Of a stretch of 14,336 bases of DNA, positions 4,588 to 9,536 are shown piece by piece (position 1 is the first letter of the stretch; every line of letters starts with the position of its first letter). Source of the DNA: a virus (lineage: Duplodnaviria; Heunggongvirae; Uroviricota; Caudoviricetes); IMG/VR virus record IMGVR_UViG_2537561825_000009, positions 1 through 14,336 of that record, one strand, 5' to 3'. Made by a program: the position numbers and the translations under genes. A model generated the notes under the pieces. It had not been told where the DNA came from, searched no databases, and saw only the letters and a list, made by a program, of their open reading frames with translations.

Positions 4588-4950
4588 TTAACGACCTGCT
4601 GCGCGGAGTTTTCCGTCAGGTTCACCGGCAAGAGTCAGCAACTGTCCCTGGTCTTCCTGCAGAATAGTCAGGCGACCACCGCGATTGACATACATCGGCG
4701 TTTCGGTGGTGTCTTCTTCGGAAATTTTCCCGCGGTTAGTCGGGCGAACATATGAGAGTTTGTGTTTGATTTTCACTCGGTTCTCATCAAACGGTTCGAT
4801 TTCTAGGTTGAGCGAGACCTTACCTTTGGTTTTCGTGTTCATCACACCGGAAGCGACTTCACTGAGAACTGCGCCGATTTTGGTTTCAAATACGCCGCCG
4901 TCCAGCTCCCCGATAAATGCCTGCACATCAGTACTGCGTTCGCTAGCCAT
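4588..4950 (-). CDS. yfdP: hypothetical prophage early protein (120 aa), YfdP-like; first gene of the leftward operon
   Basis: ATG at 4950 is preceded by AGGAGCAGCAAA (SD AGGAG, roughly 7 nt spacer). The longer 226-aa upstream extension in the ORF track runs through the GC-rich hairpin region and lacks a better start. Confidence 0.6.
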   Translation of the reverse strand: MASERSTDVQAFIGELDGGVFETKIGAVLSEVASGVMNTKTKGKVSLNLEIEPFDENRVKIKHKLSYVRPTNRGKISEEDTTETPMYVNRGGRLTILQEDQGQLLTLAGEPDGKLRAAGR

Positions 4951-4998
4951 TTTGCTGCTCCTCATCATATCGACCCTGCAAGGTCGGTTAGTTTCTCC

Positions 4999-5087
4999 AC
5001 AAAACAGAGAAGAACACCTGCGGTGACTGCCGCCCGGATGGATTGGGTTATGAGCCCGTCGTCCGGTGATGCTCTTCTCTGTTTTGT
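4999..5087. repeat. long perfect inverted repeat (15-bp arms ACAAAACAGAGAAGA / TCTTCTCTGTTTTGT, 59-nt spacer) in the GC-rich leader of the leftward operon
   Basis: Arms at 4999-5013 and 5073-5087 are exact reverse complements. The spacer contains further short stems (GCGG..CCGC, CCGG..CCGG). Confidence 0.8.
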
Positions 5088-5096
5088 AAAAAGGAC

Positions 5097-5131
5097 GGTA
5101 CCAGCCGGAAGCAAGGGTACAAGCTGGTACC
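5097..5131. promoter_or_regulatory. operator-like inverted repeat GGTACCAGC-N17-GCTGGTACC with an internal GGTACAAG half-site (candidate OL)
   Basis: Shares the GGTACAAG / CTTGTACC half-site with the palindrome in the cI-cro intergenic region. It lies upstream of the first leftward early gene. Confidence 0.35.
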
Positions 5132-5419
5132 GCCAAGACTACACACAGCATAAAGTTGTGGTGCCGGGTGCCTCCCGGTGCCTGGCGAAGGTTGCACACC
5201 AGGCGGGTGGGTATCCACAGAAGGTCGACTGTCAGCCTCAACCTTAACCCGCGTGCGCTGAGCCGCATTCACCACAACGCTAAGGATTCTCTCTGGTTGA
5301 AAATACTTAGCTGTTATGTGCCTGCTTTTAGCCACATCAGGCGAGGTGGACCTAGTTATTCCCCAACAACAAGGATTCGGTTAATCTGGATATCCCCAAC
5401 AACAATAAGAGTATTCAAT

Positions 5420-5935
5420 GTGATCGCTGAATTAACGGCAGCAATGACGGCTATTCGTGAAATCGCCCAGATTGCAAAACTAATGAACGAGGCAAAAACT
5501 CAAGCTGAAGTAAATGCGGCTATTGGTGAGCTGAACTCAAAGCTTGCGTCTATTCAGCGCGAATGCGTGTCTCTCGTTGAACTGCTGGGCTCTTATCAAG
5601 AAATAAATGCTTCTCTCAAAGCTAAAATTGCAGAATTCGAAAACTTTGAGGCTCAGACGGAAGGCTATATCCTTAACCAACTTGAGTCGGGTACTTTTGT
5701 ATACTCGAAGGAGGTAATCGTGAACGGTGACAGCATAACCATGCATCTTTGCCCAAAATGTTTTGGACAAAAGATAGTATCGATACTTCAACCATTCCCG
5801 GTTAGCGAAGATGAGCTTTTTCATAAAAGCAGGTGCCTCCACTGTGAAAATAAGTTTCTGATGAATAAAAATCCGGATTACGTATCGCCTCCATCCATTG
5901 AGGAGTTGGCCAGAAAACTTAACGGCAATCTGTAG
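5420..5935 (+). CDS. hypothetical coiled-coil / C4 zinc-ribbon protein (about 171 aa from the GTG at 5420, or 163 aa from the ATG at 5444); immunity-region moron
   Basis: N-terminal heptad-like segment (AIREIAQIAKLMNEAKTQAEVNAAIGELNSKLASIQRE...) and C-terminal CPKCFGQ...CLHCENKF (CxxC-N29-CxxC). It is on the strand opposite to both flanking operons and has its own intrinsic terminator. The start codon is uncertain because the SD is weak. Confidence 0.6.
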   Translation: MIAELTAAMTAIREIAQIAKLMNEAKTQAEVNAAIGELNSKLASIQRECVSLVELLGSYQEINASLKAKIAEFENFEAQTEGYILNQLESGTFVYSKEVIVNGDSITMHLCPKCFGQKIVSILQPFPVSEDELFHKSRCLHCENKFLMNKNPDYVSPPSIEELARKLNGNL

Positions 5936-5974
5936 ATTGCTACTGTTGTGGATATCCAGATTGTTAAAGAGCGA

Positions 5975-5998
5975 AGCGTCCTATAGGGCGCTTTTTTG
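5975..5998 (+). terminator. rho-independent terminator of the moron gene
   Basis: Stem AGCGTCC / GGGCGCT (7 bp, one G-U pair) with a TATA loop, followed by TTTTTT, 40 bp after the stop codon. The reverse strand has no T-tract. Confidence 0.7.
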
Positions 5999-6077
5999 TT
6001 GCTAACGAATCATCCTGGACTTCATATGCTCCAGGGGGCTACTTCGTGGGCGTCCTGCCTGTTTGTTGTTTCTCTTG

Positions 6078-6114
6078 GGTACATTATGTATCTCAAAGGT
6101 ACATTGTCAAGTAT
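6078..6114. promoter_or_regulatory. pair of operator-like GGTACAT sites (GGTACATTATGTATC and GGTACATTGTCAAGTAT) just beyond the cI terminator
   Basis: Same GGTACAT core as the site overlapping the cro SD and start codon (6903-6916). Confidence 0.3.
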
Positions 6115-6136
6115 AAAAAAACCTGCCGAAGCAGGT
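6114..6136 (-). terminator. rho-independent terminator of the cI transcript
   Basis: Hairpin ACCTGC-cgaa-GCAGGT (6121-6136) followed on the minus strand by a 7-nt U-tract (A-run 6114-6120 on plus), 14 bp after the cI stop. Confidence 0.65.
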
Positions 6137-6149
6137 TCATAAACATTGA

Positions 6150-6824
6150 TTAGGCTTTGATTTTGTATCTTCTTGGTTTTCCTGAGAAAATCACAGTTCC
6201 AATTATAGAGCAATTACCGTTGATCTTAATGTAAGGCTCAGGCCAGTTTGGGTTTAACGCTTTGAGATAACGCTGTGTCCCATCTTCTATCAACCTTTTG
6301 AAGGTGGTTTCACCTGTATCGTGCATCAATGCAATAACGTCGTCACCGTGGCAGGCAGGTACTTCAGGATCGACAAAAATCATGTCTCCCGGGCGGTACT
6401 CATCAATCATTGAATCACCTATCACCCGCAAGATATAAGTCATTTCCCCACAGGGTACAGGGCAGGGATACGTTTCTGCTGTGCTCAAATCAACCTCAGA
6501 ATATCCAACTTCTTTCCATGCTCCGGCCTGTACCCATGATATGACAGGGACTAATGTGATTTGTTTATTAGTGATTGAAACATCAGGTTTTTTTGTGATG
6601 TTCGTTGTCTGGTGTTCTTGATCGAGCCATCCGACAGGCAGGTCGAAACATTTTTCGATGTGTCGTGCCATGCTGTCACCGATATTTTTAGTAGCACCAT
6701 CTCCCATAAACCTGCTGGTCTGGGTTGGCTCGCGATCAATCATAGTGGCAAAGGAAGAATTCCCGCCAACACCATCTCTCAGTTTTCTGGCGTTAGACCG
6801 CCGGATGTCATGGATTGTTTTCAT
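6150..6824 (-). CDS. CI-type prophage repressor with C-terminal LexA-like S24 peptidase domain (224 aa)
   Basis: N-terminal HTH-like region, long linker, then an S24 autopeptidase core with GDSM (Ser nucleophile) and a downstream TFKRL lysine. Divergent from the cro-like gene across an operator-bearing intergenic region. Confidence 0.88.
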   Translation of the reverse strand: MKTIHDIRRSNARKLRDGVGGNSSFATMIDREPTQTSRFMGDGATKNIGDSMARHIEKCFDLPVGWLDQEHQTTNITKKPDVSITNKQITLVPVISWVQAGAWKEVGYSEVDLSTAETYPCPVPCGEMTYILRVIGDSMIDEYRPGDMIFVDPEVPACHGDDVIALMHDTGETTFKRLIEDGTQRYLKALNPNWPEPYIKINGNCSIIGTVIFSGKPRRYKIKA

Positions 6825-6914: not shown

Positions 6915-7115
6915 ATGAAAGCGTATTGGGACTCTTTAACCAAAGAACAGCAGGGCGAGTTGGCCGGAAAAGTTGGCTCAACACCTGGCTACTTACGGCT
7001 GGGTTTCAATGGCTATAAAAAAGCCAGTTTTGTGCTGGCTAAAAAACTTGAGCAATGCACGTCAGGTGCAATTACGAAATCTGACTTAAGACCGGATATC
7101 TATCCGAAAGATTAG
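6915..7115 (+). CDS. Cro-like HTH regulator, YdaS family (66 aa)
   Basis: ATG at 6915 is preceded by GGAGG with a 10-nt spacer. The protein ...LAKKLEQCTSGAITKSDLRPDIYPKD shares the C-terminal LRPDI motif I recall from YdaS-type Cro proteins. The 167-aa track ORF overlapping cI is a spurious extension. Confidence 0.8.
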   Translation: MKAYWDSLTKEQQGELAGKVGSTPGYLRLGFNGYKKASFVLAKKLEQCTSGAITKSDLRPDIYPKD

Positions 7116-8051: not shown

Positions 8052-8071
8052 AGGTCGGTCATGAGCACTAA
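7892..8071 (+). CDS. candidate small protein (59 aa, TTG start) translationally coupled to the replication gene
   Basis: Strong SD GAAGGAGA 8 nt before the TTG. Translation [59 protein letters not shown] looks like a folded domain. Its stop overlaps the start of the O-like gene by 11 nt. It falls just below the 60-aa ORF-track threshold. Confidence 0.35.
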
Positions 8072-9002
8072 ATTAACCGGCTATGTATGGGATGGTTGCG
8101 CTGCATCAGGCATGAAGTTATCCAGCGTGGCAATTATGGCCCGCCTGGCTGATTTCAGTAATGACGAAGGTGTGTGCTGGCCATCAATTGAAACCATTGC
8201 CCGTCAGATTGGCGCGGGGATGAGTACCGTCAGAACGGCTATCGCACGGCTGGAAGCAGAAGGCTGGTTAACGCGTAAGGCGCGTCGCCAGGGTAACCGC
8301 AATGCGTCGAATGTTTATCAGCTTAACGTTGCGAAGCTTCAGGCAGCGGCATTTTCTCAACTGTCAGATTCTGACCCGTCAAAATCTGACGCATCAAAAT
8401 CTGACCCGTCAAAATTTGATGCGTCGAAATCTGGCAAAAAAGCGGGTTTTCACCCGTCAGAATCTGGCGGGGATCCGTCAGTAAAATCAAAACATGATCC
8501 GTCAGATAAAAAACCTTCTCGTCCGGACGCTTCGCAACCGGACACGCAGACGGCTGAACAGGATTTTTTAACTCGCCATCCTGATGCGGTTGTATTCAGC
8601 CCTAAAAAGCGCCAGTGGGGGACGCAGGATGATTTGACCTGCGCACAGTGGCTCTGGAAAAAAATCATCGCCCTGTACGAGCAGGCTGCCGAATGTGACG
8701 GCGAGGGGGTTCGTCCCAAAGAACCGAACTGGACAGCCTGGGCAAACGAAATTCGCCTGATGTGTGTGCAGGATGGTCGTACTCACAAACAAATCTGCGA
8801 GATGTACAGCCGCGTCAGCCGCGATCCGTTCTGGTGCCGTAACGTGCTCAGCCCGTCGAAGCTGCGGGAAAAATGGGATGAGCTTTCCCTGCGCTTATCG
8901 CCGTCCGTAAGCACGTACACCGAAAAACGCGAAGACCCGTACTTCAAATCCAGTTACGACAACGTGGACTACAGCCAGATCCCGGCAGGATTCAGGGGGT
9001 GA
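8061..9002 (+). CDS. phage replication initiator, O-like (N-terminal winged-helix domain, repeat linker, C-terminal DnaT-like domain; 313 aa)
   Basis: N-terminus ...VAIMARLADFSNDEGVCWPSIETIARQIGAGMSTVRTAIARLEAEGWLTRK is a typical replication-initiator HTH. The central part is encoded by DNA iterons. The C-terminal Trp-rich region (...CAQWLWKKIIALYEQ...PNWTAWANEIRLM...) is typical of the DnaT-like domain. Confidence 0.8.
   Translation: MSTKLTGYVWDGCAASGMKLSSVAIMARLADFSNDEGVCWPSIETIARQIGAGMSTVRTAIARLEAEGWLTRKARRQGNRNASNVYQLNVAKLQAAAFSQLSDSDPSKSDASKSDPSKFDASKSGKKAGFHPSESGGDPSVKSKHDPSDKKPSRPDASQPDTQTAEQDFLTRHPDAVVFSPKKRQWGTQDDLTCAQWLWKKIIALYEQAAECDGEGVRPKEPNWTAWANEIRLMCVQDGRTHKQICEMYSRVSRDPFWCRNVLSPSKLREKWDELSLRLSPSVSTYTEKREDPYFKSSYDNVDYSQIPAGFRG
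8358..8515. repeat. origin-type iteron array inside the O-like gene (TCTGACCCGTCAAAA-like units)
   Basis: Four consecutive 15-bp units at 8370-8384, 8385-8399, 8400-8414 and 8415-8429, plus further degenerate CCGTCA-containing copies to about 8515. They encode the DPSKSDASKSDPSKFDASKS repeat in the protein. Confidence 0.7.
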
Positions 9003-9017
9003 TCATGAGTCTGTTAA

Positions 9018-9536
9018 ATGACGTTCAGAAATTCATTGAAGCCCAAAGATATTGTTGGTGTATGGACCGTATGTCACGGGCATATTGCACCGCCAGATAT
9101 TCCGGCAGGCTTCGTGGCTGTTTTCAACAGTGATGAGGCATCGTGGCATCTCGTTGAAGACCATCGAGGTAAAACGGTTTATGACGTGGCATCAGGGGAC
9201 GCGTTATTTATTTCTGAACTCGGTCCGTTACCGGAAAATGTTACTTGGTTGTCACCGGAAGGGGAATATCAGAAGTGGAACGGCACAGCCTGGGTGAAGG
9301 ATACGGAAGCAGAAAAACTGTTCCGGATCCGGGAGGCGGAAGAAACAAAAAACAGCCTGATGCAGGTAGCCAGTGAGCATATTGCGCCGCTTCAGGATGC
9401 TGCAGATCTGGAAATCGCAACGGAGGAAGAAACCTCGTTGCTTGAAGCCTGGAAGAAGTATCGGGTGTTGCTGAATCGTGTTGATACATCAACTGCACCT
9501 GATATTGAGTGGCCTGCAATCCCTGTTATGGAATAA
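9018..9536 (+). CDS. tail fibre assembly protein (Tfa) homologue, probably a 5'-truncated remnant (172 aa)
   Basis: From [35 protein letters not shown]... to ...[17 protein letters not shown] is the conserved Tfa body as I recall it. The first ~21 residues ([21 protein letters not shown]) are unrelated, there is no good SD, and no tail fibre gene lies upstream. Confidence 0.65.

Follow-up and report, generated by a model that had tools for sequence, protein, structure and literature searches.

RNA elements upstream of yfdP

Positions 4951–5419 of a 14,336-nt stretch of caudoviral DNA (IMG/VR record IMGVR_UViG_2537561825_000009; the whole of it is called the window here) lie between yfdP, the first gene of an early-left operon, and a moron gene transcribed in the opposite direction. 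Read on the minus strand, from the moron towards yfdP, this 469-bp stretch carries two conserved elements that we call hairpin A and motif B, a small RNA (sRNA) gene ending in an intrinsic terminator, a three-way-junction RNA with an arm that resembles part of the initiator tRNA, and a small hairpin. The best overall explanation, which we regard as probable, is that the stretch consists of an sRNA gene and a structured junction leader on the minus strand of the early-left leader. The identity and architecture of the elements, which we assign with high confidence, rest on sequence, structures, covariation, strand, synteny and homology to a validated RNA. The elements of the stretch are listed below in window coordinates.

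5351–5374: hairpin A, adjoining motif B; its stem sequence varies while pairing is kept
5313–5349: motif B, CCACCUCGCCUGAUGUGGCUAAAAGCAGGC(ACAUAAC), with a 30-nt block (5349–5320) read on the minus strand and a breakpoint at 5349
5279–5089 (approximate), minus strand: sRNA gene of about 191 nt, made up of a multi-branched, tRNA-like core, a linker and an intrinsic terminator
5133–5154, minus strand: single-stranded linker UUUAUGCUGUGUGUAGUCUUGG (linker UGCUGUGUGUAGUCUUGG), candidate seed of the sRNA
5088–5132, minus strand: intrinsic terminator, with a hairpin at 5132–5096 (10-bp GGTACC stem, 17-nt loop) and five U residues at 5092–5088
4990–5095, minus strand: three-way junction of about 105 nt
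5040–5061, minus strand: CGACGGGCUCAUAACCCAAUCC in arm P2 of the junction (arm GGGCUCAUAACCC), with a stem-loop at 5057–5045
4969–4988, minus strand: small hairpin that separates the junction from the yfdP ribosome-binding site

An earlier inspection of the letters alone (the original prediction) had described this stretch as GC-rich, hairpin-dense and non-coding, and as an observation this description is confirmed as a whole, with each feature it named present in its place. The G+C content is 0.54–0.56 in the stretch compared to 0.42–0.50 in the flanks. A perfect 15-bp inverted repeat (4999–5013/5073–5087), which grows to 25 nt with 84% complementarity (4999–5023/5063–5087), corresponds to the three-way junction; the GGTACC palindrome pair is a perfect 10-bp inverted repeat (5096–5105/5123–5132); and two further GC stems, CCGGG-tgcct-CCCGG (5164–5178) and GCCTGG...CCAGGC (5180–5205), are two hairpins of the sRNA core. 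The minus strand folds with −188.4 kcal/mol, compared to −151.0 ± 6.7 kcal/mol for shuffled sequences (z = −5.6; none of 100 shuffles folded as well), while the plus strand gave z = −3.3 against dinucleotide shuffles. Relatives preserve the stems through compensatory changes and share no coding frame across the region, and both findings favour reading the stretch as RNA.

The absence of a convincing open reading frame (ORF) was thus borne out, although mechanical ORFs do exist, namely a 226-aa upstream extension of the yfdP frame (4588–5268) along with ORFs of 49 and 95 aa. Their presence relates to an alternative in which the region encodes a protein, either a YmfH-like product or a 226-aa, N-terminally extended YfdP, that is frameshifted in this strain. 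Such a protein would be in line with a ‘frameshifted’ pseudogene annotated by the Prokaryotic Genome Annotation Pipeline (PGAP) at 4965–5275, with ymfH in the e14 element of K-12, with a 226-aa protein in SfIV and with the yfdP frame being open to 5268; however, the three annotations are mutually incompatible, and across relatives no coding frame is shared, since insertions and deletions of lengths other than multiples of three separate them and every frame on both strands is interrupted by stops. Conservation tracks base pairs instead, including compensatory substitutions in helices and G-U pairs workable only on the minus strand, and the translated extension has a low-complexity, arginine- and cysteine-rich junk composition. 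Moreover, a discrete 193-nt RNA has been detected by rapid amplification of cDNA ends (RACE) and northern blotting at the homologous locus (PMC7719688). We consider a protein-coding region extremely improbable, and ymfH in e14 is probably not a protein gene; a literature search on ymfH found nothing relevant. The stretch is at present annotated inconsistently, as ‘ymfH’, as a pseudogene, as an extended YfdP or not at all, and its reading as an RNA cassette corrects these annotations.

The small RNA and its terminator

The discrete RNA at the homologous locus is sRNA-17, a 193-nt transcript, reported to be under ArcA repression, that was mapped by 5′ and 3′ RACE and northern blotting in an mEp460-like prophage of E. 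coli K1 strain RS218 (PMC7719688). With mEp460 used as a stand-in for RS218, which is absent from our E. coli collection, the published primers place sRNA-17 at positions 2640–2832 of the mEp460 locus (L006) on the minus strand, directly upstream of yfdP, and the identification primer TTGCTGCTCCTCATCATATCG is identical to positions 4952–4972 of the window. The sRNA of the window shares with sRNA-17 its locus and strand upstream of yfdP, its CGUUGUGGUGAAUGCG start, its terminator, its fold topology and its approximate length (191 versus 193 nt). The two are identical at 139 of 193 positions and near-identical over the 5′ 16 nt and the 3′ 45 nt; they differ in the interior hairpins and in the linker, with a mosaic breakpoint at 5136. 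Both transcript ends are conserved, CGUUGUGGUGAAUGCG at the 5′ end and GGUACCG(N)CUUUU at the 3′ end, the ends in the window being assigned by homology only, and the 3′ RACE end of sRNA-17 falls in the U-tract of the homologous terminator.

The authors of the sRNA-17 study found no Rfam relative for it (PMC7719688). In a permissive scan, the single strong match was to the Rfam family STnc100 (RF02076), at 5308–5085 on the minus strand over its full model (1–206), with 43.4 bits (E = 4e-8), which does not reach the gathering score of 47. Relatives in SfV, SfIV, ST64B, phiES15 and phage P1 likewise gave sub-threshold matches of 35–41 bits, compared to 83–208 bits for canonical STnc100 copies in an Stx2 phage and in Fels-1. 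A 23-nt stretch, CACCGGGAGGCACCCGGCACCA, agrees with the STnc100 consensus, and the match also takes in the terminator. In an alignment of the window sRNA with canonical STnc100 and the copies of Fels-1, phage P1, e14, ST64B and phiES15 (alignment A1), analysed with RNAalifold, the motif GUGAAU is invariant, and the 9-bp closing helix of the sRNA core (5278–5270/5163–5155) shows compensatory changes at six of its nine pairs, together with G-U pairs that fit the minus strand only. Minimum free energy (MFE) folds of the window RNA, e14, sRNA-17 and the Stx2 phage STnc100 display one topology, consisting of a closing helix around four to five hairpins, a linker and a terminator. The window copy therefore resembles STnc100 (PasD, EcOnc27) in its closing helix, GUGAAU, the CCGGGAGGCACCCGG hairpin, the multi-branched core, the linker and the 3′ intrinsic terminator, but differs in its middle hairpins. 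It also differs in location: the window copy heads the early-left operon, whereas the canonical copies examined are late-region elements, found either behind stx2B or in the interval from Q to holin. In Fels-1 (locus L012, positions 996–2751), three STnc100 copies stand in tandem between the Q antiterminator and holin genes.

Judged from these comparisons of sequence, we assign 5279–5089 with high confidence as the local variant of sRNA-17 and as a diverged relative of the STnc100/PasD family, which links the orphan sRNA-17 to that family. Relatives of STnc100/PasD are expressed and Hfq-associated (PMC5331693; PMC12711010; bioRxiv 10.64898/2026.05.13.724894), and PasD has been united with STnc100 in the last of these reports; none of the three ties sRNA-17 to the family, and a literature search for follow-ups of sRNA-17 found nothing relevant.

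The linker at 5133–5154 is unpaired in the MFE fold and is kept even in relatives without a structured core (L107, L109 and L128). The GGTACC hairpin that follows it was not listed by our terminator scan, its 17-nt loop being beyond the limit of the tool; in the Rfam scan it appeared as a weak match to the DicF terminator.

The junction leader, its tRNA-like arm and motif B

Next to the sRNA terminator, on the side of yfdP, lies the three-way junction. We collected yfdP homologues from one genome per species, and the sequence from the terminator to the start codon can be aligned among Mangrovibacter, Kosakonia, Phytobacter, Leclercia, Atlantibacter, Enterobacter, Superficieibacter, Pseudocitrobacter and Scandinavium, as well as phages of Klebsiella and Salmonella. 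The structure defined on 26 diverse sequences (alignment A3) consists of a long helix P1 (5087–5068 paired with 5018–4999), an arm P2 (5066–5062 with 5038–5034) and a variable hairpin P3 (5033–5030 with 5023–5020). The sequence GUGGAGAAAC, conserved after helix P1, can extend this helix across the U-tract of the terminator to 5092/4994.

Covariation supports both the structure and its strand. In alignment A3, 93.6% of cells are paired, compared to 35–51% when the partners are slid against each other, and the covariation score of 0.193 exceeds that of shuffled alignments (0.098; none of 500 shuffles scored as high), with 11 pairs changed on both sides. One U-G pair is present in 22 of the 26 sequences, where the other strand would have an A-C mismatch. 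With a covariance model built from the alignment (R1), the minus strand of the window reaches 119 bits compared to 40.7 bits for the plus strand, and the same asymmetry is seen in every relative, with e14 of K-12 scoring 89 bits ahead of xisE. A second copy of the junction was not found in the window with R1, the next best match reaching 14.5 bits, and Rfam 15 gave no match to the junction up to E = 10. In the e14 carrier E. coli 8FA (locus L008), the ymfH annotation at 2502–2813 spans the homologues of both sRNA and junction (R1 match of 89 bits at 2530–2635).

The core motif of the junction is found in at least 120 viral contigs. Every instance starts right after the hairpin and U-tract of an intrinsic terminator and is followed by a hairpin of variable sequence and then by the ribosome-binding site of the first gene; at the position of 4969–4988, relatives carry a different sequence (CCGGCGGUGGCAGCCGCC) that still forms a hairpin. 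The first gene itself differs between phages, being yfdP, an RdgC-like gene (F1055), xisE in e14 or others. The junction appears to be undescribed in Rfam 15 and the searchable literature; this strongly covarying leader RNA with no Rfam entry precedes excision and early-recombination genes across a whole group of lambdoid phages that lack N.

With 20 pairs, or 25 including the extension, and 93.7% of cells paired, helix P1 has the duplex length (about 20 bp or more) that characterises RNase III substrates, making it a plausible RNase III target. RNase III sites are known from the lambda N leader and from T7 early RNAs, and the thrS operator mimics the anticodon arm of tRNA-Thr. Like these leaders, the junction brings an anticodon-arm look-alike and a duplex of 20–25 bp into a 5′ leader, shortly before a ribosome-binding site; unlike them, it copies the initiator arm, takes the form of a three-way junction joined to a terminator and stands ahead of genes that are unrelated from phage to phage.

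The look-alike lies in arm P2, where the stem-loop at 5057–5045 (GGG-CUCAUAA-CCC) agrees exactly, over 14 nt, with CGGGCUCAUAACCC, the stem-loop that bears the anticodon in E. coli initiator tRNA-fMet; the agreement takes in three successive G-C pairs and the CAU of the 7-nt loop that they close. The 77-nt tRNA-fMet sequence used for this comparison was checked in our E. coli collection and is present with 100% identity in 5426 of 5426 genomes, where it is annotated as tRNA-Met and each genome has a median of four copies. Both GGGCUCAU and CCCAAUC are near-invariant across genera. We estimate the chance of such a 14-nt match to any tRNA at about 1%, which is not negligible; its placement as a hairpin with a 3-bp stem and 7-nt loop inside a covarying structure makes chance less likely, and on this sequence-based argument a mimic function is putative.

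VapC cleaves tRNA-fMet, and the three G-C pairs define initiator identity. The arm could be pictured as a functional mimic, a decoy or sensor for a VapC-type toxin, for methionyl-tRNA synthetase (MetRS) or for the 30S P site together with initiation factor 3 (IF3), which would make the cassette of junction and tRNA-like core a phage RNA for counter-defence or translation hijacking instead of a simple leader. The exact match and the near-invariance of GGGCUCAU speak for this, as do the retention of U-CAU-A in phage P1 (loops UUCAUAU and GUCAUAU) and the co-occurrence of the junction with a cloverleaf-like core in lambdoid phages and in phage P1, there among tRNA genes. However, loop positions 37–38 vary (AA, UC or UA), position 37 being sometimes a pyrimidine, unlike in tRNA, and one lineage, Scandinavium, lacks the CAU loop; a literature search on initiator-tRNA anticodon mimics in phage leaders found no relevant paper. 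On balance, we consider a functional mimic unlikely.

The phage P1 matches connect the junction with the sRNA. Model R1 matches phage P1 twice (25 and 33 bits), each time at a junction with a UCAUA loop that is followed at once by an STnc100-type core; of these cores, one represents the sRNA-17 type, with identity at 82 of 98 positions, and the second represents the window type, with identity at 99 of 120. That junction and core occur together, in permuted order, in unrelated phage groups argues for a shared function. In addition, the 5′ end of the sRNA, the sequence behind the junction and the most frequent variant of motif B all contain GUGG(U/A)GAA. One proposal, which we consider unlikely, treats the junction and the STnc100-type cloverleaf core as the two parts of a single, undescribed class of phage RNA imitating the initiator tRNA. 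If true, this class would join an anticodon arm (three G-C pairs and CAU) to a module resembling the acceptor stem and T-arm, with the order core, terminator, junction in lambdoid phages and with junctions fused to cores as two tandem units in phage P1, and it might serve as a decoy, a sensor or a device recruiting ribosomes or enzymes, for example against toxins that cleave tRNA-fMet. The tRNA look-alike and the phage P1 fusion offer a concrete starting point for testing what the widespread STnc100-type RNAs do. In the phage P1 record (locus L010, positions 1143–1640), the two tandem junction-core units lie among tRNA genes and are unannotated.

On the other side of the sRNA, motif B is 85–100% conserved in phages of Cronobacter, Klebsiella, Salmonella, Kosakonia and others and is present in at least 120 viral contigs, with one copy in each; the copy in the window reads GUGGCUAAA. 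The adjoining hairpin A retains its pairing with stems as different as GCUGG/CCAGC, CUUGG/CCAAG, ACUGG/CCAGU, UCUCG/CGAGA, CCUUUUA/UAAAAGG and GCCGGA/UCCGGC. A first comparison favoured the minus strand for hairpin A in 70 versus 22 sequences, but a shuffle-normalised test and G-U counts gave no separation of the strands. On the opposite strand, a highly diverse small ORF starts 43–50 nt away (or about 77 or 108 nt), which is the moron in the window and ymfI in e14, and in relatives the ribosome-binding site of the divergent accessory gene abuts hairpin A. What follows motif B on the minus strand also varies, being a full sRNA core, a linker and terminator only, or something else. Motif B and hairpin A may be a promoter or leader cassette serving the accessory genes; alternatively, they may belong to the pL leader or act as a recombination linker. 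Motif B appears to be undescribed in Rfam 15 and the searchable literature.

Other readings of motif B were tried. An H-type pseudoknot (CCAC/GUGG with GCCUG/CAGGC) can be drawn, in which one stem was fixed by the search pattern and the outer pair of the other stem is not conserved. A sigma-70 promoter was rejected on either strand, with weak hexamers only and no promoter-like site listed at the motif in our scans; some relatives have a possible extended −10 element (TGGTATnnT) that is not found in the window type. A translation start of a leftward ORF was rejected as well, the ORFs that follow being short and unrelated. The direct repeat TCCCCAACAACAA occurs twice, 33 bp apart, at 5360–5372 and 5393–5405, and relatives likewise carry two copies in this arrangement, although of different sequences (CTGTAGGGGT and TTGACTGTGGAA).

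Phage attachment sites often copy tRNA anticodon arms, and the conserved blocks of the stretch might be sites at the DNA level, such as operators, promoter elements, a recombination linker or an attachment-site-like copy of a tRNA gene. This idea fits the location of motif B, which coincides exactly with the breakpoint at 5349 and keeps a constant distance to the start of the divergent accessory gene, and it fits the strand ambiguity of hairpin A. Yet the sRNA core and the junction score about 80 bits higher on the sense strand and contain strand-specific G-U pairs, the stems change in sequence while keeping their pairing, unlike protein-binding sites, and the attachment site of the prophage is a tRNA-Thr gene 4 kb away. 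We regard DNA-level sites as a very unlikely explanation, which remains applicable only to motif B and hairpin A.

The pL leader and the prophage remnant

The stretch forms the distal half of an untranslated, highly structured leader of about 1.1 kb that runs leftward from the promoter pL (6110–6083) to the yfdP start codon (4950). Beginning at pL, this leader contains a hairpin and boxA, the antisense moron within an inverted repeat, hairpin A and motif B, the sRNA and its terminator, the junction, the small hairpin and the ribosome-binding site. Its pL-proximal features are as follows.

6110–6083, minus strand: pL, TTGACA-16-CATAAT, near-consensus and directly after the terminator of the repressor gene
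6065–6110, minus strand: pL with the two OL operators overlapping it
5994–5975, then 5973–5963, minus strand: a hairpin followed by an exact boxA, CGCTCTTTAAC (= CGCUCUUUAAC), in the pL leader about 105 nt downstream of pL
5973–5994: terminator of the moron
5383–5401 and 5944–5962: 19-nt inverted repeat, 95% complementary, flanking the moron on both sides

The original prediction had tentatively assigned pL/OL and a nutL or put-type antitermination RNA to the stretch itself, with a small RNA as an option. Its view of a non-coding, RNA-dense region stands, as do the small RNA, now identified as a homologue of sRNA-17 and relative of STnc100, and a leader RNA located in cis. The placement of pL/OL does not, since these are at 6110–6065, about 660 bp to the right, with operators matching those of OR: a 17-bp operator, TGTAyN7GGTACA, is present in two copies over pL and in three more in OR, between the repressor gene and cro. 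The same pL promoter is carried by e14. A nutL site is likewise lacking from 4951–5419, which contains no boxA, the exact boxA being located past the moron. The predicted absence of an N-like arginine-rich protein was upheld, both here and among ORFs at the N position in relatives; an N protein acting with a nut site in the stretch, as in lambda, was accordingly ruled out.

For the boxA beside pL, about 0.007 exact matches to the 11-mer are expected in the window. The sequence GCTCTTTAAC occurs in 44 of 238 fetched loci compared to about 4 expected (roughly tenfold enrichment), and in loci bearing motif B it is found on the early-left strand, 577–1529 nt upstream of the motif. Some relatives have boxA as part of a textbook P22-type nutL (boxA and GCGCUGACAAAGCGC), whereas in the window type the hairpin comes first and boxA second. 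This is the order of rrn leaders, which antiterminate with host Nus factors alone, and it would fit the absence of an N-like protein. We conclude that 5963–5994 is a real nutL-like or rrn-like site of the pL leader, and an rrn-type boxA beside pL suggests a way of transcribing a 1.1-kb untranslated leader without N protein. A weaker boxA-like sequence, GACTCTTTAAC, is found at 6930–6940 on the plus strand, within the cro-like gene and shortly after pR; it could represent a nutR-like counterpart, or it could have arisen by chance. The 19-nt inverted repeat could, in the leftward transcript, loop out a 542-nt segment antisense to the moron; its half-site AATCTGGATATCC is kept in relatives with different morons.

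In HK022, antitermination depends on putL and putR, RNAs made of two stem-loops (about 70 nt) that begin at +1 of pL (PMC9378689). By analogy, the structured elements described here could act in cis as a put-like processive antiterminator, the sRNA being merely a terminated by-product. In this case the STnc100-type core, the junction or both would bind RNA polymerase as they emerge and take it past the sRNA terminator and those further along the early-left operon. Such a function would suit their position at the head of a long operon in a lambdoid phage, the lack of an N-like protein at the N position, as in HK022, and the terminator built into the cassette; canonical STnc100 copies likewise stand first in the late operon, flanked by Q and the lysis genes, and Fels-1 has three of them. 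However, the elements have no likeness to putL or putR in sequence or architecture: a blastn-short comparison of positions 4901–6200 of the window with the HK022 immunity region returned chance matches only, and a direct reading of the putL region agreed. They lie about 1 kb from pL rather than at its start and are present in a single copy, the rightward pR operon carrying no second junction. The junction is located downstream of the very terminator that would need to be suppressed, a conventional boxA signal is already at hand in the leader, relatives of the sRNA are Hfq-bound regulators acting in trans, and the phage P1 elements stand outside any lambdoid early operon. An antiterminator of this kind is, in our view, quite unlikely.

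Returning to an sRNA gene with a junction leader, every functional step in this prophage is one that we infer. With moderate confidence, by analogy with its relatives, some of which are Hfq-bound, the sRNA would be produced in the lysogen or upon induction and would act in trans by base pairing. Equally with moderate confidence, the sRNA terminator may serve in cis as a barrier that limits entry into the yfdP-xis-int operon in the lysogen, and boxA may bring in Nus factors that shield the long untranslated transcript from Rho. The junction would act only in read-through transcripts, where, with low confidence, it may influence processing or stability through its long helix and/or the start of translation of the first early-left gene; with similarly low confidence, we suggest that it would work through the long duplex and the tRNA-like arm, probably via a factor that recognises this arm.

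Several points weigh against this reading. In addition to the sub-threshold STnc100 score, the interior and linker of the sRNA have diverged from sRNA-17, so their putative seeds differ and their targets probably do as well. The promoter scan found no consensus sigma-70 promoter directly upstream of the sRNA, which may thus be processed from the pL transcript rather than transcribed independently. Deletion of sRNA-17 increased yfdP about 95-fold and also raised yfdR (PMC7719688); the published deletion, however, leaves the terminator hairpin in place and introduces a resistance cassette, so the rise in yfdP likely reflects read-through and is no proof of an insulating role. The variation of loop positions 37–38 and the loss of the CAU loop in Scandinavium mean that strict tRNA mimicry is not universal, and any role of the junction is conjecture.

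The window holds what remains of a lambdoid prophage of E. coli, of the SfV/e14/mEp460 type and inserted beside tRNA-Thr, with the following genes around the stretch.

896–971: tRNA-Thr (ARAGORN), the prophage attachment site, 4 kb from the stretch
986–2149: integrase gene
After the integrase gene, minus strand: leftward block yfdT...yfdQ-yfdP
4588–4950, minus strand: yfdP, as annotated by PGAP in an identical genome, first early-left gene
5420–5935, plus strand: moron encoding a hypothetical protein of 172 aa, transcribed against pL
6150–6824: e14-type repressor gene
6915–7115: cro-like gene

The yfdP start codon is at 4950–4948 and its ribosome-binding site, GAGGAG, at 4963–4958; the early-left operon continues in the order yfdP-yfdQ-yfdR-...-xis-int. 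A tRNA or tmRNA gene in the stretch was rejected, ARAGORN reporting the tRNA-Thr only. The 1.35 kb around the stretch are found with 100% identity in several E. coli chromosomes and with 98.5% identity in the isolated phages PhiR29_1 and PhiR29_2, and 3009 of 5426 complete E. coli genomes match parts of the 469-bp stretch, e14 of K-12 included. Mosaic breakpoints are located at 5136, 5349 and 5403.

The N-terminal half of the moron product is coiled-coil-like, and two CxxC pairs near its C-terminus resemble a zinc ribbon. Further to the right, between about 9000 and 14336, late genes are missing after the replication gene (8061–9002), as expected of a prophage remnant, and a low-G+C island (0.27–0.36) with a DEAD/DEAH helicase follows the replication gene. 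A full-length match to the Rfam IS009 RNA (220.9 bits), at 9295–9493 on the plus strand, overlaps a truncated tail-fibre-assembly pseudogene.

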